Assembly: GCA_015063955.1 (NCBI GenBank)
Contig: SVTD01000002.1
Span: 8,236 to 72,235 of the forward strand
Length of the DNA stretch: 64,000 bases
Reading direction: 5' to 3'
Origin: Oscillospiraceae bacterium
GTDB taxonomy: Bacteria > Bacillota > Clostridia > Oscillospirales > CAG-272
A program made the position numbers and the translations under genes. Positions 2,420-36,652 of the stretch are shown here, in pieces (positions within the stretch are counted from its first letter, which is position 1; each line of letters opens with the position of its first letter). The notes beneath the pieces are model-generated. The model did no database searches. It saw nothing but the letters and a program-made list of their open reading frames with translations, and was not told where the DNA came from.

Positions 2420-3408
2420 ACCGCAGAAGCGGCGAGGGTGGTCATAACGGCATAGATCTGGGCGTTGTGCTTTGTAATATCGTCCTTTGCGGCAGTAAGA
2501 GCTTCGTATATTTTTGCAAGCTTTGTAAGCTTTGTGCGGCTTGCCAGGTTACGTGCGGTTTCGCTGTCAGCATAATACGTGGTCGTATCGCTGTTGCATT
2601 TTGCGCTTATAAGATCTCTGACGGCAAAGAGAGCGTATTCGAAAAACTCTTCAAATTCGCCCCTTGAATACTTGATGCCGGATGCGAAAATTATAGCATC
2701 TGAAGGCGAGCCCGTGCAAAGCAGCTCGATAAGCCTTGCCGCATCCTTCGAAATAGAGGTGCTATGGGAGTTCTTTTCCGAGAGCGTAGAGAGTGCTTTG
2801 CCGAGAGAGCCCCGTCCGACGGCGCATGCATCGGCGATCTCCTCATCGGATGCATTCTTTGCAAGAGGGTGGCTTCTCAGCCATTTGGCACAGAACTCTG
2901 TGGAAAAGACTTCTGTTTTTAAGCTTTGAGCGCGGCTTCTTACAGTTTCAAGAAGGGATGTGGAGTCGTCTGTGAGAAGGAGAAAAACAACGTAAGAGGG
3001 CGGCTCCTCAAGAGAGAGAAGAAGAGCGTTTTGCGCCTGTGGAGTCATTTTTTCAGCTTCCTCGATGATATAGACTTTGTTGTCACCGTCATCGGGATAG
3101 TATCCGAGGGTGTCTGTCATCCGGCGGACGTCATCAACCGAGATAGAAGCCTTATCTCCCTTGGTAAGGGTGAAGATATCGGTATCGTAGCCGTCTTCTA
3201 TTCTTTTGCAGCTTCTGCAATTGCCGCAGGGGAGACTGTGCGATGGATCCTCACAGGAGAGAGCCTTACATATCTCCTTTGCAACAGTGCGCTTTCCGCT
3301 GCCCTTAGGTCCCTCAATAATATAAGCGTGGGATAAGGTCTTGCTTCTGATATGAGAAGCGATAAGAGACTTCATGCCGTCGTTTCCGATGATTCTGTCA
3401 AAATCCAT
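2416..3408 (-). CDS. holB: DNA polymerase III subunit delta' (HolB)
   Basis: 330 aa. It has an AAA+ clamp-loader N-terminus (HAYIIEGPKGSGKRT), a zinc module (CGNCRSCKRIE) and an SRAQ-type sensor (TVRSRAQ). Confidence 0.85.
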   Translation of the reverse strand: MDFDRIIGNDGMKSLIASHIRSKTLSHAYIIEGPKGSGKRTVAKEICKALSCEDPSHSLPCGNCRSCKRIEDGYDTDIFTLTKGDKASISVDDVRRMTDTLGYYPDDGDNKVYIIEEAEKMTPQAQNALLLSLEEPPSYVVFLLLTDDSTSLLETVRSRAQSLKTEVFSTEFCAKWLRSHPLAKNASDEEIADACAVGRGSLGKALSTLSEKNSHSTSISKDAARLIELLCTGSPSDAIIFASGIKYSRGEFEEFFEYALFAVRDLISAKCNSDTTTYYADSETARNLASRTKLTKLAKIYEALTAAKDDITKHNAQIYAVMTTLAASAV

Positions 3409-4313: not shown

Positions 4314-5426
4314 ATGAATATAGGTATCGTAGGATTCGGCGGTATGGGAAAAACTCATGCTTATGCCGTTGAAAATCTTAAATATTTCTATTCTCCTCTC
4401 GATTTTTCTGCTAAGGTTCTCGGCGTATGCTGTGCTCATTTTGAAAAGGCAGAGGCGGCCTGCAAGGTTTTCGGATTTGAAAAGGCCTACAGAGATGAGG
4501 ATGAGCTTATAGCTGATCCCTGTATTGATATCGTTGATATCTGTACGCCTAATCACCTTCATTATGAAACCTTGAAAAAGGCGATCGCCGCAGGAAAGCA
4601 TATCTACTGCGAAAAGCCTCTTTGCATAACCGATGCCCAGGCTCAGGAGATTGCCGCTATGGCAAGGGAGAAGGGAATTATCTGCGCTGTGGTTTTCAAT
4701 ACGAGATTCCTCCTTCCCGTTCTTCGTGCAAAGGAGCTTGTGGAGTCCGGCAGGATAGGAGATGTCCTCAGCTTCTCCGGCAGATTTCTCCATTCCAGCG
4801 CCGCCGATCCAGAACGACGTGCCGGCTGGAAGCAGAACCGTGAGATCTGCGGCGGCGGAGTGCTTTTTGATCTCGGCAGCCATACCATCGATCTTATCCG
4901 CTGGATCTGCGGAGAATTCAGGTCGGTTTCAGGACTTTCACAGATCGCGTATCCCACCCGTCTCGGTATGAACGGTGAGGAGTGGCAGACCAATGCCGAT
5001 GAGGCGTTTTATATGACGGCAACCCTTGAGTGCGGTGCTTGCGGAACCATTGCCGTGGGCAAGATAATGGCAGGCACGAACGACGATCATTCCTTTGAGA
5101 TCTACGGAACGAAGGGAAGCGTAGCCTTTGATCTTATGCAGCCTAACTTTCTCAGATTTTACGATGCAACAGCTCCGGAATCCGAGAGAGGCTACACGAA
5201 TATCGAGTGCTGCGGCAGATACCCCGCGCCCTCCGGAGTTTTCCCCGGGGTAAAGGCTCCCGTGGGCTGGCTTCGCGGTCACGTTGGAAGTATGTATAAT
5301 TTCCTTGACTGCGTTCATCGCGGCGTGCCCTGCGCCCCCTCCTTTGACGACGGTGCGGCAGTACAGAGGATAATGGAGGCAGCGTACCTTTCGGCAGAAA
5401 AGGGCGCAAGGGTTGATATAAAATGA
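4314..5426 (+). CDS. Gfo/Idh/MocA family NAD(P)-dependent oxidoreductase
   Basis: Rossmann N-terminus MNIGIVGFGGMGKTH and an EKPL motif (YCEKPLC). I moved the start to ATG 4314, which is preceded by GGAGG. The ORF-track start 4251 has no RBS. Confidence 0.8.
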   Translation: MNIGIVGFGGMGKTHAYAVENLKYFYSPLDFSAKVLGVCCAHFEKAEAACKVFGFEKAYRDEDELIADPCIDIVDICTPNHLHYETLKKAIAAGKHIYCEKPLCITDAQAQEIAAMAREKGIICAVVFNTRFLLPVLRAKELVESGRIGDVLSFSGRFLHSSAADPERRAGWKQNREICGGGVLFDLGSHTIDLIRWICGEFRSVSGLSQIAYPTRLGMNGEEWQTNADEAFYMTATLECGACGTIAVGKIMAGTNDDHSFEIYGTKGSVAFDLMQPNFLRFYDATAPESERGYTNIECCGRYPAPSGVFPGVKAPVGWLRGHVGSMYNFLDCVHRGVPCAPSFDDGAAVQRIMEAAYLSAEKGARVDIK

Positions 5427-6049
5427 CAAAAGATATTCTTGTTATCGGTCTTTGCGGAAGAAGCGGCAGCGGAAAGGGCTACGTTTGCGAGAGATTCTCT
5501 GCCTTCGGCATCCCCTCCGTCGATACCGATAAGGTCTACAGAGAGATACTTGAAAAAGAGGGAAGTCAGTGCCTTGCAGAGCTTGTAGCTGAGTTTGGAA
5601 AGGATATCCTTTCTGAGGGAAAGCTTGACCGACGCGCCCTCAGCGCTATAGTGTTTGCTCCCGGTAACGAAAATAAGCTTGAAAGGCTTAACGCTATAAC
5701 ACATAAATACATACTGAGTGAAACCAACGAAAGGATAGAGTCCTACAAAAAAAACGGGTGCAGAGCCGTTCTTGTCGATGCTCCCGTGCTTTTTGAAAGC
5801 GGATTTGATTCCATATGTGATTTTACCCTTTGCGTAACCGCGCCCGACAGCGTATGCGTTGAGCGAATATGCGCAAGGGATTCGAGAACGAAAGAGGAGG
5901 CTCTCAGCCGTCTTGCAAATCAGAAAAGTGCAGACGAGCTGAGAAGGCTTTGCTCCTTTGAAATAGTAAATGACGGAGAGGCCGACGTTTTGGCGCAGGT
6001 GCTCGAGGTCATAAATAAGCTTGGGGCAGGAGGAAAAGATGAAGAATAA
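5423..6049 (+). CDS. coaE: Dephospho-CoA kinase
   Basis: 208 aa with P-loop GLCGRSGSGKG, and the length and pattern are typical of CoaE. The start overlaps the upstream stop. Confidence 0.85.
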   Translation: MTKDILVIGLCGRSGSGKGYVCERFSAFGIPSVDTDKVYREILEKEGSQCLAELVAEFGKDILSEGKLDRRALSAIVFAPGNENKLERLNAITHKYILSETNERIESYKKNGCRAVLVDAPVLFESGFDSICDFTLCVTAPDSVCVERICARDSRTKEEALSRLANQKSADELRRLCSFEIVNDGEADVLAQVLEVINKLGAGGKDEE

Positions 6050-6625: not shown

Positions 6626-8032
6626 ATGTCTGAGAAAACAAAAGCACAGCTCCTTGCAGATGAGCTCTTTTATAAGAAAAAGTCTGCTTTTGAAACAATG
6701 AGTGAGGAGGATCGCGCAACAGCATACAAGTATGCAGACGAGTATGCCGAGTACCTCTATAATTCCAAGACAGAGCGCGAGGCGGTAGCGGCCTCCATCG
6801 AGATCCTTAAGAATGCGGGATACGTTGAGTATACCCTCGGCGACAGCCTTCAGGTTGGCGGTAAGTACTATCTCAATAACCGTGAAAAGGCACTTTTCGC
6901 CTTCAGAGTAGGTACAGATAATATCGATAACGGCGTTCGTATCTGCGGCGCTCATATCGACTCCCCCCGTCTTGATTTAAAGCCCAATCCCCTTTATGAG
7001 GATAACGGCTTCGGCTACCTCAAGACCCACTATTACGGCGGTATCCGTAAGTATCAGTGGCCCACTATCCCCCTTGCACTTCACGGTGTTGTAACAAAGA
7101 AGGGCGGAGAGACTGTAGAGGTCAATATCGGTGAGGATGCGGGCGATCCCGTATTCATGATCACAGACCTTCTCCCCCACCTTGCACGCGAGCAGGGAAA
7201 GACTCCCCTCGGTCAGGCCTTCGGCGGCGAGATACTCAATATGGTTATCGGATGCAGCCCCTATATGGAGGACGGCAAGGTAGCAGAGGGCGAGGCTATC
7301 AAGCTCAACCTTATGAGAATGCTTAACGAGAAGTACGGCATCGTTGAGGCTGACTTCCTCACAGCAGAGCTTTGCGCAGTTCCCGCAGGTAAGCCTATGG
7401 ATATCGGTCTTGACAGATGCCTTATGGGTGCATACGGTCACGACGATAAGGTTTGTGCATATCCCGCACTTACAGCTCTCCTTAATAACCCCACAGACAA
7501 GAATACCGTTATCTGCGTTCTTGCCGATAAGGAAGAGACAGGAAGCGACGGTGTTTCCGGTATGCAGAGCACGCTTCTTGCAGAGCTTATCGATGAGATA
7601 GCAAAGGCTCTCGGCGGAAACGGCAACCTTTGCCGCAGCCGTTCTATGTGCCTTTCCGCAGACGTTAACGCAGGCTTTGATCCCAGCTACGCAGAGGTAT
7701 TTGAAAAGAGAAATGCCGCTATCGTTAACTGCGGCGTTGTAATGACAAAGTACACAGGCAGCGGCGGTAAGTATTCCACAAACGACGCAGGTGCGGAGTT
7801 CATCGGCAAGATGCGCGATATTTTCGACAGCGAGGGCGTTCTCTGGCAGTCTGCAGAGATGGGTAAGATCGACATCGGCGGCGGCGGAACAATTGCCAAG
7901 TACGTTGCAAACCACAACATTGACACAGTTGACCTCGGTGTTCCCGTTCTTTCCATGCACGCTCCCATCGAGATCATCTCAAAGCTCGACCTTTACGAGA
8001 CATATAAGGCGTTCCTTGCTTTCTGTAAATAA
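6626..8032 (+). CDS. M18-family aminopeptidase
   Basis: 468 aa with GAHIDSPRLDLKPNP, the metal-ligand region HDDKVCAY and EETGS, all typical of M18 (aminopeptidase I / aspartyl aminopeptidase-like) enzymes. Confidence 0.8.
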   Translation: MSEKTKAQLLADELFYKKKSAFETMSEEDRATAYKYADEYAEYLYNSKTEREAVAASIEILKNAGYVEYTLGDSLQVGGKYYLNNREKALFAFRVGTDNIDNGVRICGAHIDSPRLDLKPNPLYEDNGFGYLKTHYYGGIRKYQWPTIPLALHGVVTKKGGETVEVNIGEDAGDPVFMITDLLPHLAREQGKTPLGQAFGGEILNMVIGCSPYMEDGKVAEGEAIKLNLMRMLNEKYGIVEADFLTAELCAVPAGKPMDIGLDRCLMGAYGHDDKVCAYPALTALLNNPTDKNTVICVLADKEETGSDGVSGMQSTLLAELIDEIAKALGGNGNLCRSRSMCLSADVNAGFDPSYAEVFEKRNAAIVNCGVVMTKYTGSGGKYSTNDAGAEFIGKMRDIFDSEGVLWQSAEMGKIDIGGGGTIAKYVANHNIDTVDLGVPVLSMHAPIEIISKLDLYETYKAFLAFCK

Positions 8033-31312: not shown

Positions 31313-31316
31313 ACGA

Positions 31317-31347
31317 AAGCTGTCGCACGAGTTGCGACAGCTTTTTT
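31317..31347 (+). terminator. his operon terminator
   Basis: aagctgtcgca-cgagt-tgcgacagctt is followed by tttttt. Confidence 0.9.
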
Positions 31348-31378
31348 ATGTGAAAATTCTTTTTGTTGAGCTGTTTGA

Positions 31379-31656
31379 ATTTCGGCGAACGTTCCCCCGC
31401 GCGTCATCCTGAGCGGAGTAAACATCATAGTATGATGTTTGCGGAGTCGAACCATCCCATAGGATGGTGCCCTCCCTAAGGAGGGCAGGATCTCGCGGAA
31501 AGCTATCGAAAGCCTTTTCGTAGATCCCGCCCCGCAGGGCGCCACCCTAAGGGGTGGTTCGACTTCGCAAACAACTCACCGGGTTGTTTGCTCCGCTCAG
31601 GATGACGACGAAGGTGGCGTTTGCCGAAATAACAACCCACCGATAAATCCGAATCC
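31379..31656. repeat. Non-coding nested inverted repeat carrying six small hairpins (repeat region A)
   Basis: Outer arms are 31379-31391 / 31618-31630. A 17-bp perfect arm pair is cgtcatcctgagcggag 31402-31418 / 31591-31607. A 12-bp pair is 31441-31452 / 31557-31568. Each arm carries three local hairpins (31420-31440, 31452-31467, 31469-31486; 31528-31541, 31542-31557, 31569-31589). The terminal motif ccgataaatccgaatcc is at 31640-31656. Confidence 0.85.
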
Positions 31657-35553: not shown

Positions 35554-35630
35554 TTTTTTACCTGACACTTTCTTTTTGCTGTTTTACAGCGTTCTTACAG
35601 TCGATTGCTGCAGTGCCTTCAGGCTGATAA

Positions 35631-35743
35631 CAAAAAAACGAAACCCATCCGTCACTACAGATAAGTCTCGTCGATTAAGATAAAGCCAGGACAAAAGTCC
35701 GGTTGTTGACTTTATCACACGGGGTGCTGACTACTCCCTTACG
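35631..35743 (-). promoter_or_regulatory. Candidate yybP-ykoY (Mn2+) riboswitch with intrinsic-terminator expression platform
   Basis: The minus-strand leader starts at the predicted TSS: GUAAG-GGAGUAG-...-AAAGUCAACAA-[ccggac uuuu guccugg]-GGCUUUAU...GAGAC-UUAUC. The blocks GGGAGUAG, AAAGUCaACA, GGCUUU and GAGAC, plus P1 pairing GUAAG/CUUAU, match the yybP-ykoY aptamer as I remember it (L. lactis yoaB type). The 3' P1 strand (plus 35660-35669) is also the 5' half of a 12-bp terminator stem pairing with 35638-35649, followed by U7. A P-type ATPase downstream is the classic regulated gene class. This is not verified with a covariance model, and the P4 region looks short. Confidence 0.6.
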
Positions 35744-35748
35744 ATGTC

Positions 35749-35777
35749 ATTATAGCATACCCCAAATCATTTTTCAA
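35749..35777 (-). promoter_or_regulatory. Promoter of the riboswitch-TetR-ATPase operon
   Basis: The minus strand reads TTGAAA (plus 35772-35777), 17 nt, then TGcTATAAT (-10 at plus 35749-35754). The predicted TSS is about 35742, at the first base of the proposed P1. Confidence 0.65.
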
Positions 35778-35813
35778 GATGGTTTTAACATTTTTTGTGA
35801 AAATATTATATAT

Positions 35814-36622
35814 AAATTCGGGTTTATCGGGGAGAGGGGGACGCAAAGAACTTTTTTGAAAAAAAGTTCTCTGCACTCTCAAAAAACTTTGAAAAGGGAT
35901 GGGTAAAAATTCGGGTTTGTCGAAATGTTGCCGCTAACCCGTAGGGCGGGCAGACCCTTGCCCGCCGTCCATCAGCACACGAATAAATCCTTTAAATTCG
36001 GGTTTATCGGGGAGATAAAGGTGAACGTTATAAAGCCTTCCCCCATGATTCGGGGGAAGGTGGCTCCTTAGGCTGAGGCTTGATAAGCACATACGATATT
36101 CCCGGCGCTGCAGTTATAGTTTAGATAAACTCCACGGGGGAGACGGAAGAGGGTTGACTGCACAAACTTGAAGTTATAGCTGAATTTTCAAGAGGACAGC
36201 ATTTTTAGTATTGATACTCTCTCTTTTCACACCAAAAGACGTACGTTCAGCGTAGTCAACCCTCTTCCGTCGCTCCCCGTTCGATAGCGATAATTCATAC
36301 TTCAGCTCCGGGAATAAGCTTTACTTTAATTCTAACGCAAGTGCAAAGCGCCACCTTCCCCCGAATCATGGGGGAAGGCTTTGGTGCAAATCCCATCTTT
36401 AGCTTATCAAATTTTTGTTTGAAACACGCCGATAAACCCGAATTTGAAGACCGGTTCGCGTGCAGATGGCGGGAGCAGCAAGCCGCTCCCCTACGATGGG
36501 GTGAGTACGAACATACCGACAATCCTTATATATACCCATCCCTTTTTCAAAGTTTTTTGGAGTGCAGAACCTTTTTTTCAAAAAAGGTTTTGCGTCCCCG
36601 TCTCCCCTACAAACCCGAATAT
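35814..36622. repeat. Non-coding about 810-bp modular nested inverted repeat (repeat region B)
   Basis: The left arm is 35814-36159, the right arm 36254-36622 and the centre about 94 nt. The motif AAATTCGGGTTT(A/G)TCG occurs forward at 35814, 35907 and 35994, and reversed at 36429-36445 and 36607-36622 (a degenerate copy lies near 36517-36525). Arm-to-arm blocks are perfect over 30 nt (36035-36064 / 36350-36379) and 18 nt (36142-36159 / 36254-36271). Details are in the findings. Confidence 0.9.
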
Positions 36623-36652
36623 AAAAACCGTACGGGACTCCGTACGGTTTTT
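36623..36652 (-). terminator. Rho-independent terminator of the 38233-36657 operon
   Basis: aaaaaccgtacgg-gact-ccgtacggttttt has T-tracts on both strands. Confidence 0.85.

Follow-up and report, generated by a model that had tools for sequence, protein, structure and literature searches.

Positions 35814-36622 of the window (the whole 64-kb stretch of Oscillospiraceae DNA that was analysed) hold some 810 bp without a credible coding sequence, built of hairpins within one larger palindrome. The question raised by this locus is whether the hairpins persist because they serve in an RNA, or because they belong to a piece of DNA that is itself copied from place to place. The original prediction offered both readings and could assign the stretch to no class of element.

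Architecture of the element

The region 35814-36622 is indeed one giant imperfect inverted repeat. Its left arm (35814-36159) and right arm (36254-36622) are 77% identical across 338 aligned nucleotides, with an alignment score of 364 compared to 79 ± 12 for shuffled sequence, and they enclose a centre of 94 nt (36160-36253). The arms consist of colinear modules, and the composite as a whole reads A-B-C-core-C'-B'-A'. Folding as a single strand gives -433 kcal/mol for the plus strand (z -27) and -432 kcal/mol for the minus strand (z -24). A motif, AAATTCGGGTTTRTCG, is present in five copies in the window, every one of them within the element; 0.11 copies would be expected by chance, and five were reached in none of 100 shuffles. 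The forward copies start at 35814, 35907 and 35994 and the reverse copies lie at approximately 36429-36445 and 36606-36622, as had been described, the last of these with two mismatches; a sixth, degenerate copy was placed at 36510-36531, where the reverse complement reads ...ATATAAGGATTGTCGGTATGTT. The outermost copies delimit the composite, with AAATTCGGGTTTATCGG at its left end (35814-35830, plus strand) and ATATTCGGGTTTGTAGG at its right end (36606-36622, minus strand), the latter directly adjoining the terminator of the upstream gene.

Module A (35814-35906, plus strand) consists of the motif, an A/T-rich hairpin (35847-35870) and the tail CTCAAAAAACTTTGAAAAGGGAT. It is 93% identical to its inverted partner A' (36531-36622, minus strand; hairpin at 36568-36589), and the changes between the two hairpins are symmetric and leave the pairing intact. 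Module B (35907-35993, plus strand) has the motif at 35907-35923, a REP-type hairpin with a GTAG foot at 35941-35966 (GTAG GGCGGGCA GACCCT TGCCCGCC) and the tail CATCAGCACACGAA. Its counterpart B' (36446-36530, minus strand) has the degenerate motif, a REP-type hairpin at 36471-36494 (on the minus strand GTAG GGGAGC GGCTTGCT GCTCCC) and the tail CATCTGCACGCGAAC; the two modules are 62% identical and the hairpin is wholly replaced. Module C (35994-36069, plus strand) carries the motif at 35994-36010 and a 9-bp hairpin at 36035-36064 (CCTTCCCCC/GGGGGAAGG), and is 86% identical to C' (36345-36445, minus strand), which has the motif at 36429-36445, the identical hairpin block at 36350-36379 and a 25-nt insertion relative to C. 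The core (36070-36344), 69% identical between the arms, contains inner inverted repeats (36097-36114/36299-36316 and 36136-36159/36254-36277) around the 94-nt centre; no relative of it was found at any other locus examined.

The finer detail of the original prediction held on re-examination, with one small correction. The 23-nt direct repeat at 35813 and 35993 is perfect. The two blocks said to be identical between the arms are exact reverse complements, 36035-36064 of 36350-36379 and 36142-36159 of 36254-36271; the second is 18 nt long, and the first, given as 30 nt, is in fact 31 nt and is itself the 9-bp hairpin. All four of the local hairpins that were quoted are present, with the sequence differing between the arms and the pairing kept. 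The open reading frames within 35814-36622 are short and mechanical, and none of the window ORFs of this region has a Pfam match at E <= 0.1.

Genomic context

Both of the flanking signals that had been reported are there, and both are boundaries lying outside the element. On one side is a perfect 13-bp-stem bidirectional terminator belonging to a 238-aa gene (36623-36652), and on the other, found in a consensus scan, is a sigma-70-type promoter (35749-35777, minus strand) of an operon comprising a leader, TetR and a P-type ATPase; this promoter has 11 of 12 consensus matches, is TG-extended and is 37 bp from the element. No consensus promoter was found by scanning inside 35814-36622.

Syntenic loci without the insert were found in four Candidatus Avispirillum relatives (L133-L136), in which the gene order AP_endonuc_2, 238-aa gene, TetR, P-type ATPase is kept and the composite is missing; the orthologous spacer there is 253-290 bp, compared to approximately 1100 bp in the window. 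Since four relatives of the same gene order have the shorter spacer, the region is an insertion between the terminator of one gene and the promoter of the next operon. The spacers of these sister species are too diverged for the alignment to fix the junctions of the element. Exact-protein look-ups of three flanking genes gave no strain-level empty allele, returning instead the identical filled allele or contigs broken in the element; the contigs of this strain mostly end inside element units. In two further loci (L126 and L129) the upstream region is replaced rather than being an empty site.

A second, decayed member of the same repeat superfamily, also palindromic, lies at 31375-31656 (arms 31379-31473 and 31536-31630; right-end motif GGATTCGGATTTATCGG). 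It sits between the hisIE terminator and the next promoter, is homologous to the interiors of L082, L006 and L234, and is missing from the orthologous spacers of L133 and L134. The window holds these two family elements and two GTAG hairpins.

A dispersed repeat family in Clostridia

It is clear from the comparison with relatives that the element is not unique, being a member of a multi-copy dispersed family. The motif AAATTCGGGTTTRTCGG forms the inverted ends of palindromic, extragenic elements of 87-410 bp in other genomes (18 bounded elements), 12 of which have no overlapping ORF of at least 120 aa while the other six overlap only mechanical or edge ORFs. The hosts are many Candidatus Avispirillum, Acutalibacteraceae and other Clostridia MAGs from gut and rumen; Clostridia MAGs account for approximately 40 of 113 among the genome-scan loci listed, with the motif often at a contig end, and related MAGs have at least 4-5 exact-motif loci each. 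A metagenome scan with an 18-mer returned 120 loci, mostly chance matches in conserved genes repeated across samples, among which some 15 family members were recognised. The 51 loci of a viral scan included 2-4 family members, one beside prophage genes, and no transposase; the element itself had no BLASTN match in phage or plasmid collections.

Copies within the same genome are 92-98% identical (by group, L022/L080, 93%; L015/L053, 98%; L013/L042/L082, 90-95%) and have unrelated flanks, and similarity between loci begins or ends at the outer edge of the motif. This recurrence amid unrelated flanks indicates that the motif-delimited unit is what gets copied. The interior between the conserved ends is completely different among copies. 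The ends themselves co-vary: 73% of cells pair, a level reached in only one of 500 shuffles, and the end position 13:52, for example, is GC in eight cases, AU in five and GU in three.

Modules like those of the window are found in other combinations. A-type modules stand alone or next to other units in seven loci (L022, L094, L042, L157, L162, L064 and L305), and positions 66-129 of L064, a different locus, are 92% identical to A'. The frame of module B occurs with other hairpins (L013, L037, L043, L094, L113, L186 and L234), and module C is homologous to the L080 and L002 elements. A unit found after module A in L022 is also present in L080, where it has no A module before it. Units of the A, B and C types are found independently of one another at other loci.

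These observations bear on whether the palindrome could be a purely local product, in which a template switch during replication produced an inverted duplicate of A-B-C and the hairpins were kept by intra-palindrome correction, with no mobile family involved. The perfectly colinear modules, the identical 31-nt and 18-nt blocks in otherwise diverged arms and the symmetric differences between the A and A' hairpins are all consistent with such an event. However, the A, B and C types and the terminal motif are present at many unrelated loci and genomes; furthermore, the identity between the arms varies from 62 to 93% by module, with the B hairpin wholly replaced, and such unevenness is not the uniform divergence that would follow a single duplication. 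The local template-switch reading is largely refuted by the dispersed family and we hold it to be highly improbable; inverted duplication may have contributed to the final symmetry.

It is also barely conceivable that the motif acts as an operator or other binding site, for example for the adjacent TetR, in an array that regulates the TetR/P-type ATPase operon. The 810 bp immediately upstream of the operon promoter do contain five to six copies of the 17-nt motif, but the motif flanks unrelated genes in many genomes, and sister species have the operon and a near-invariant leader without the array altogether. Moreover, 37 bp separate the -35 box from the nearest motif copy upstream of it, and for the other copies the distance rises to as much as 850 bp. 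A TetR operator array was rejected because the motif is genome-wide and is missing in the sister species. Two other candidates were also rejected: a CRISPR array, since the "spacers" are conserved hairpin modules common to several loci, and integron attC or dif sites, since the core motifs do not fit their consensus.

A literature search for the motif in both orientations matched only unrelated primer strings, and the family itself appears to be undescribed. The kind of element, which the original prediction could not name, is a familiar one, as the element fits both the REP/BIME and the MITE classes; it is a BIME/MITE-like mosaic of REP-type units, in which the family is new and the kind is known.

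REP-type hairpins and a candidate enzyme

The canonical REP has a GT[AG]G foot and three G-C pairs at the base of the stem, has "double-foot" forms, and is found inside tnpAREP genes (PMC6006769). In the window a short imperfect palindrome (about 20-40 nt in REPs), a GT[AG]G foot and a G-C stem base come together in the B and B' hairpins; the GTAG foot is missing from modules A and C and from the core. Throughout the family, GTAGGG followed by a perfect stem of at least 6 bp was seen at 45 of 104 sites, compared to 14 of 2080 in shuffled sequence, and the stems are of 30 distinct sequences. They are almost all Watson-Crick (254 such pairs and 12 others); on the GTAG strand the remaining pairs, which are few and from related cases, are G-T or T-G ten times and A-C once. 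This enrichment test replaced a first hairpin finder that was too permissive, scoring 44% positives in shuffled controls. It was also relied on in place of covariation counts on the B and C modules, which were weak because MAFFT misaligned the length-variable hairpins.

The enzyme that acts on REPs in other bacteria was looked for by tblastn with approximate IS200 TnpA and E. coli RAYT queries, which gave one real match, in L179. L179 and P0099 match the NCBIfam model REP_Tyr_transpos with E ~3e-20, and E. coli TnpAREP (4ER8) is the only PDB match of either. Genes for RAYT-like HUH tyrosine transposases are found on contigs that also carry the motif family (L179 and L308), and they score below the curated NCBIfam cut-off (72.5 bits, compared to 80). 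They contain GTAGGGCGGGGGCTTGCTCCCGCC and its reverse complement in frame, and the loop GGCTTGCT of the B' hairpin is common to the hairpin inside these genes. In L308, a 224-aa gene is next after the RAYT-like gene, and approximately 25 bp downstream of it lie the motif and an array of GTAG hairpins (5221-5620) that alternate in orientation and are 20-25 nt apart; five of these hairpins have a GTAG/CTAC foot. The B and B' hairpins of the window are inverted relative to each other but are approximately 500 bp apart, with other modules between them. The RAYT-like genes examined lie in conserved synteny and have no motif copies at their flanks, so that only circumstantial evidence links the enzyme to the motif. 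Neither a RAYT nor any other transposase gene was found in the 64-kb window or in the Avispirillum loci examined. On such repeat families in Clostridia, our literature search gave only one article's mention of Group 1 RAYTs in that class (PMC5581495).

Structured RNA or DNA element

Read as a structured RNA, the locus would encode either two convergent or divergent paralogous genes for RNAs of approximately 350 nt or one hairpin RNA of approximately 800 nt, with the stems under selection; such an RNA might serve as a substrate for RNase III, as a scaffold or in antisense regulation. The very stable predicted fold agrees with this, as do the local hairpins, in which pairing is preserved despite sequence differences from arm to arm and from locus to locus, and the ten G-T or T-G pairs compared to a single A-C on the GTAG strand hint that one strand folds. 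However, recognition of single-stranded DNA by an HUH enzyme would be expected to give a G-T excess too; the ten cases are, besides, not independent of one another, and folding is equally good on both strands. No Rfam family was found on the region, where even at E <= 10 there were only sub-threshold matches at chance level, and no Rfam match overlaps family elements in 18 related loci; the single match of Rfam 15 in the whole window is one tRNA. Both window copies, furthermore, follow an intrinsic terminator and precede the next promoter, with no consensus promoter inside. Variable interiors, multiple copies, unrelated flanks and absence from sister species are the behaviour of mobile DNA and not of a conserved RNA gene. 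An RNA gene is in our view very unlikely, and selfish repeats spreading at the DNA level are far more likely.

Of the two readings first offered, that of a BOX/BIME/MITE-like DNA element is supported by the insertion, the dispersed units and the GTAG hairpins, while that of a structured RNA found no backing in the Rfam searches, the promoter scan or the folding of the two strands. The observation that structure is kept while sequence drifts is true, but across the family the hairpins look like interchangeable alleles set in constant frames rather than the products of slow compensatory drift.

Classical MITEs

The elements could instead be classical MITEs, that is, deletion derivatives of an IS that are mobilised in trans by a DDE transposase through recognition of the inverted ends CGGGTTTRTCGG. 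They would then have inserted at AATT-like targets with duplication of AATT, the GTAG hairpins would be passengers, and the composite would be a Russian doll of three nested insertions, C-core-C' within B/B' within A/A'. Inverted termini are the hallmark of MITEs moved by DDE transposases, and the unit of dispersal here is bounded by inverted terminal motifs; the 18 elements of 87-410 bp are short, non-coding, multi-copy units between terminal inverted repeats. The flank consensus Y|AAATTCGGG...CCCGAATTT|R fits a palindromic AATT target, and comparison of the empty site of L134, TTTTTATGAATTTATAAAAATAC, with the junctions in the window, TTTTTATATT|CGGG...CCCG|AATTTATATATAAT, leaves room for duplication of AATT. 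The same ends are also found on a 1846-bp Agathobacter element (L046), the terminal sequence of which recurs at Lachnobacterium contig ends (L024 and L109), which suggests that these ends are used by unrelated cargos.

Against this, no element with the same ends encodes a transposase among the approximately 190 motif-scan loci examined, and so no parent IS is apparent there. A search for autonomous elements, as inverted motif pairs 0.7-3 kb apart, yielded only L046, which is non-coding (no ORF above 81 aa; a 52-bp x10 tandem array) and has no match in the plasmid collection. The supposed AATT duplication is inseparable from an extension of the inverted repeat, and its two copies differ in L004 and L053; the flanks of the 18 elements contain no direct repeat outside the motif that would mark a target-site duplication, and the diverged sister-species spacers do not place the junctions. 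Finally, the divergence of the arms is not ordered from an oldest outer to a youngest inner module, as simple nesting would require. We therefore consider a classical MITE origin unlikely, though deserving of serious attention.

A model of selfish REP-type DNA

The explanation that we think probable is that the element is a cluster of small, non-coding, hairpin-rich units from one dispersed Clostridia family, stacked as A-B-C/C'-B'-A'. The units would spread at the DNA level, most likely by the action of a RAYT-type enzyme on hairpins of single-stranded DNA at replication forks, a mode of action that has been proposed for REP, REPIN and BIME elements. New units would land beside or inside existing ones, probably at hairpin tips and at the centres of palindromes, and the nested, symmetric order would arise in this way. 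Paired hairpins may persist with changed sequence if the hairpin is the substrate for copying, and palindromes may correct themselves by intrastrand templating or by conversion from other copies; selection on an RNA fold would then not be needed. The window copy is probably neutral or selfish DNA, the effect of which is at most to keep the TetR/ATPase promoter at a distance from the upstream gene or to insulate it. The RAYT model does not itself explain the 17-nt inverted terminal motif that delimits the units.

A bolder form of this model, which we put forward as a doubtful conjecture, is that Clostridia have an undescribed manner of REP propagation, in which a domesticated RAYT with an in-frame REP pair swaps GTAG hairpin cassettes within constant frames and inserts units preferentially at palindrome tips, so building nested "Russian-doll" cruciforms of up to 800 bp. 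The constant frame would here be motif ... hairpin ... CATCTGCACACGAAC. The long hairpins could also be transcribed and act as double-stranded RNA.

If the selfish-DNA model is correct, the Clostridia of gut and rumen (Oscillospirales-type MAGs) have a mosaic repeat family of REP/BIME-like character and a candidate enzyme, and Clostridia RAYT-like genes would carry an in-frame pair of inverted REPs; to our knowledge, the biology of REPs and RAYTs has been worked out almost entirely in Proteobacteria. Neither a new mechanism nor the settlement of an open question follows. In practice, such units break short-read assemblies, generate spurious ORF calls and create strain- and species-level differences directly upstream of promoters, and they should be masked or modelled when MAGs are annotated or regulatory regions compared.

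Comparison with known systems

The pneumococcal BOX elements (boxA-boxB(n)-boxC) are, like the units described here, modular intergenic repeats of Firmicutes, with few types of module in variable number and the capacity for stable secondary structure. Their modules, however, run in direct order between constant A and C ends and form no nested palindromes, and they have neither GTAG hairpins nor common sequence with our element, which has no Rfam match. The Correia elements of Neisseria, the pneumococcal RUP and the enterobacterial ERIC/IRU are likewise small, non-coding, multi-copy and intergenic. They too have terminal inverted repeats at their ends, can form long hairpins and show polymorphism among related strains. 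Their target duplication is defined, being TA in Correia and RUP, and they have a parent IS in the cases where one is known; neither was found here. They share no sequence similarity with the family, and their interiors are not mosaics of interchangeable GTAG hairpins.

The family is set apart from the REP, BIME and REPIN elements and their RAYT (TnpAREP) of E. coli, Pseudomonas and Stenotrophomonas by its Clostridia host, a group for which we know of no description of REP-type families. Its hairpins are highly diverse within a genome, in place of one or a few REP types, and each unit is bounded by a conserved inverted terminal motif of 17 nt. In the window the two GTAG hairpins are approximately 500 bp apart and form no tight doublet, modules A and C and the core are without the GTAG foot, and the cognate enzyme is a candidate only. 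The likenesses are these: extragenic GC-rich hairpins with a 5' GTAG foot and a G-C stem base, units that occur singly, as inverted pairs or as mosaic clusters with conserved non-hairpin linkers, "double-foot" GTAG...CTAC forms, and a patchy distribution between close relatives. A single-copy, syntenic RAYT-like gene with in-frame REPs, as found here, has also been reported in TnpAREP subclass 2.4 of Cyanobacteria and Bacteroidetes (PMC6006769).

TIRtrons are families of terminal inverted repeats associated with RAYT-like "TIRYT" genes (Di Nocera et al. 2013, PMC3733652). They are reported from Proteobacteria and Acidobacteria, with the TIRs flanking the transposase gene, whereas the RAYT-like genes examined here have no flanking motif. 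Some known TIRs have GGGGWSAS in common, and the ends of the window element are ...TCGGGGAGAG and ...TAGGGGAGAC, a resemblance that is a short match. TIRtrons are moderately abundant, long inverted-repeat units occurring as dimers or clusters, and some are composites of degenerate GTAG units and unrelated stem-loops (PMC3733652); in both respects they resemble the element described here.

A palindromic insertion upstream of the TetR operon

The composite element (35814-36622; modules A-B-C-core-C'-B'-A') is flanked on one side by a bidirectional terminator with a perfect 13-bp stem (36623-36652), which ends a minus-strand gene for a 238-aa protein. On the other side is a strong minus-strand promoter (35777-35749) for an operon made up of a conserved leader followed by genes for a TetR-family protein and a P-type ATPase. 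Every sequence feature of the original prediction was found where it had been placed; the 23-nt direct repeat and the 18-nt block shared between the arms are exact, as is the block described as 30 nt, whose true length is 31 nt. The arms (35814-36159 and 36254-36622), separated by a centre of 94 nt, share 77% identity across a 338-nt alignment that scores 364, compared to 79 +/- 12 for shuffles, and each strand is predicted to fold into one long hairpin (approximately -433 kcal/mol, z -24 to -27). Open reading frames within the element are mechanical and gave no Pfam matches; it is clear that this is a real, non-coding palindrome. Five copies of the motif AAATTCGGGTTTRTCG are present in the 64-kb window (three forward, two reverse), where 0.11 would be expected by chance, and every one is within 35814-36622; there is also a degenerate sixth copy at 36510-36531.

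The 238-aa protein has relatives of 63-81% identity, and four of the loci encoding them are from Candidatus Avispirillum MAGs. The gene order AP_endonuc_2, 238-aa gene, TetR, P-type ATPase is kept in all four (L133 JAZUAR, L134 JAZRRC, L135 JAZTDG and L136 JAZTXZ), yet the spacer from the 238-aa gene to TetR is 253-290 bp there as compared to around 1100 bp in the window. When aligned, these relatives have 40-60 nt between terminator and promoter, a near-invariant leader, and no counterpart of the 810-bp stretch. Comparison of syntenic loci thus shows the 810-bp element to be an insertion.

A dozen metagenomes hold contigs of the same strain that show 100% identity, and most of these break inside the composite element, an expected outcome when a repeat or palindrome is assembled from short reads. 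None of them supplied an empty allele. In most samples the strain-level contigs (L117-L132 and L313-L321) stop within or at the border of both this element and a second one, described below; repeats of the family fragment short-read assemblies of the window organism. Gene callers have also placed hypothetical genes in the repeats, such as one of 98 aa in L114. One close strain (L126 1-294 and L129 1-163, compared with the window from 35747 onward) is 99.5% identical through the TetR gene and leader, but the similarity stops exactly at the -10 box. Upstream of this it has another promoter, a pair of terminators and a hairpin of 13 bp; the sequence upstream of the promoter has been replaced between close strains. 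The start of the L126 contig, ...TAATCCCCCCAAATTT, resembles the right end of the family. The leader itself (35630-35746, minus strand, around 115 nt from promoter to TetR gene) ends in an intrinsic terminator (35672-35637) and is almost invariant across five species despite diverged flanks. Its similarity to the Streptococcus sRNA SSRC10 of Rfam is below threshold (33.7 bits, gathering score 56, E 3.7e-4). Possibly the leader acts on the operon as an uncharacterised riboswitch or attenuator.

A dispersed family delimited by the terminal motif

A 16-mer scan of one genome per species returned at least 113 loci; around 40 of the 113 listed are, in our judgement, from Clostridia MAGs (Avispirillum, Acutalibacteraceae, "Eubacteriales" and others), with several sharing one genome and, in many cases, no more than 150 nt between the motif and the end of a contig. 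In the Clostridia loci the motif forms both inverted ends of elements of 87-410 bp. Each of the 18 such elements tabulated is a long imperfect palindrome with GC-rich sub-hairpins; 12 overlap no ORF of at least 120 aa and the other six touch only mechanical or edge ORFs. The interior differs wholly from element to element and, in an all-against-all comparison, similarity between loci begins or ends at the outer edge of the motif. Within one genome, copies have 92-98% identity and their flanks are unrelated (L022/L080, L015/L053 and L013/L042/L082). Furthermore, the ends co-vary: 73% of cells pair compared to 69.7% in shuffles (1 in 500 as high), falling to 28-49% when the partner is slid, and position 13:52 is G:C in 8, A:U in 5 and G:U in 3. 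Taken together, the edge-limited similarity, the same-genome copies and the co-variation indicate that the motif-delimited unit is what gets copied, and the composite element is a member of this dispersed, multi-copy, extragenic family. A purely local palindrome is largely refuted by the dispersed family. An array of TetR operators was also rejected: the motif is genome-wide, and sister species have the same operon without the array.

A second, decayed family member lies at 31375-31656, between the hisIE terminator (31316-31344) and the promoter of the next gene. It is also palindromic (arms 31379-31473 and 31536-31630, 77% complementary), with a right end of GGATTCGGATTTATCGG and a partly deleted left end, and shows homology to the interiors of L082, L006 and L234. 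The orthologous spacers of L133 and L134 lack this element; every strain-level contig has it.

The original prediction had also allowed for a structured RNA, which is not supported. The strong predicted fold is equally good on both strands, both window copies are downstream of a terminator and ahead of a promoter with no internal consensus promoter, and the family behaves as mobile DNA. Neither the composite element nor the family elements in 18 related loci matched Rfam. Elsewhere in three of the family-bearing loci, Gut-1 RNAs score above the gathering threshold at L079 3937-4013, L094 4157-4232 and L113 3478-3553, that in L079 adjoining a tRNA around 200 nt from a family element, and none of the three was seen to overlap one.

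A 7244-bp IMG/VR contig labelled viral, L305, starts and ends inside family units with A-type modules (1-219 and 7120-7244). Its interior holds phage-like structural genes and a bacterial RumA-like methyltransferase gene, with no transposase; the contig probably represents the edge of a prophage or a circularly permuted sequence.

Modular construction

The three module types are found at other loci alone or in other combinations. Module A consists of the motif, an A/T-rich hairpin and the tail AAAAAACTTTGAAAAGGGAT (also in L022, L094, L042, L157, L162, L064 and L305); module B of the motif, a GTAG hairpin and the tail CATCTGCACACGAAC (also in L013, L037, L043, L094, L113, L186 and L234); and module C of the motif and the hairpin CCTTCCCCC/GGGGGAAGG (also in L080 and L002). 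No relatives of the core (36070-36344) were found among the other loci collected. In L022 an A module immediately precedes a unit; the 93%-identical copy of that unit in the same genome (L080) has none, and therefore adjacency arises by juxtaposition. Identity between the arms is uneven (A/A' 93%; B/B' 62%, the hairpins being entirely different; C/C' 86%, with an indel of 25 nt; core 69%), which argues against a single inverted duplication followed by uniform drift. Judged from these sequence comparisons, we favour the 810 bp being a mosaic of units with separate histories, to whose symmetry local inverted duplication may have contributed.

GTAG hairpins and RAYT-like genes

The B hairpin is GTAG-GGCGGGCA...TGCCCGCC and that of B' is GTAG-GGGAGC...GCTCCC. 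Canonical REPs have a GT[AG]G foot, three G-C pairs at the stem base and "double-foot" GTAG...CTAC forms (PMC6006769); by this definition the GTAG hairpins of both modules are canonical. In the Clostridial loci, 45 of 104 GTAGGG sites lead into a perfect Watson-Crick stem of 6 bp or more, compared to 14 of 2080 shuffled tails, and the stems comprise 30 distinct sequences. Stem pairs are Watson-Crick in 254 cases and otherwise in 12; the exceptions on the GTAG strand (G-T or T-G 10, A-C 1), which are few and related cases, fit folding of one DNA strand, or of an RNA. The insertion, the dispersed family and these hairpins bear out the earlier suggestion of a BIME/MITE-like mosaic.

RAYT-like genes exist in contigs bearing the family. 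A tblastn search with an approximate E. coli RAYT sequence matched one of the contigs collected, L179, whose product and relatives (P0099 and others) match NCBIfam REP_Tyr_transpos (E ~3e-20) at 72.5 bits, below the curated cut-off of 80; in the PDB such proteins match E. coli TnpAREP 4ER8 alone (E 2.5e-4), in an alignment that pairs the HUH and FxEH motifs. The synteny GH35, RAYT-like gene, 224-aa gene is conserved in three genomes, as is expected of domesticated single-copy RAYTs (PMC5581495). The genes (L308 4001-4504, L310 4001-4516 and L311 4001-4492; proteins P0099-P0218) carry GTAGGGCGGGGGCTTGCTCCCGCC and its reverse complement in frame, encoding the invariant peptides VGRGLAPA and AGASPRPT, one each side of the HUH motif; at the DNA level, three genomes share the hairpin without a change. 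REPs inside the transposase gene have been reported for TnpAREP subclass 2.4 (PMC6006769). In the longer variants P0112 and P0105 a 26-residue segment beginning at the second hairpin is tandemly duplicated once or twice. The loop GGCTTGCT recurs in the window B' hairpin, L019 and L041. Around 25 bp after the 224-aa gene downstream of the RAYT-like gene in L308, the terminal motif is followed by an array of GTAG hairpins in alternating orientation (5221-5620), five with a GTAG/CTAC foot.

Discussion

We propose that a RAYT-type HUH enzyme would act on single-stranded hairpin DNA, moving or copying units, and that new units would tend to insert next to or within existing ones, giving the nested order. 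Perfect pairing despite differing sequence could then reflect the hairpin as substrate together with self-correction of the palindrome or conversion between copies. Several points weaken this proposal. Such an enzyme leaves the 17-nt inverted terminal motif unexplained as the unit boundary, a feature typical of DDE-type MITEs, and a transposase of any kind was found neither in the window nor in the Avispirillum loci collected. The same ends also occur on a non-coding 1.85-kb Agathobacter MAG element (L046 1674-3519, 1846 bp; longest ORF at most 81 aa), with inverted repeats of around 50 bp starting with AAATTCGGGTTTGTCG, a 52-bp tandem array of 10 copies (2494-3011) and no match in Rfam or plasmids; its terminal sequence recurs at the contig ends of L024 and L109 (Lachnobacterium). 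A target duplication is neither demonstrable nor excludable from the element flanks and the sister-spacer alignment. For these reasons mobilisation as a classical MITE is kept as the main rival, although we consider it unlikely.

No sequence match to the family was found in Rfam, phage and plasmid collections or the searchable literature; we rate the repeat family as new and the kind of element as already known. The result should be useful for annotating and assembling Clostridia MAGs with these repeats. In the literature consulted, REP families are described mainly outside Firmicutes, and the REP-RAYT picture is extended here in a way that would not surprise a specialist. The closest known systems include REP/BIME/REPIN elements with their RAYTs, the TIR repeat families tied to RAYT-like genes (Di Nocera et al., PMC3733652) and MITEs such as Correia or RUP, while BOX elements are alike in modularity only.
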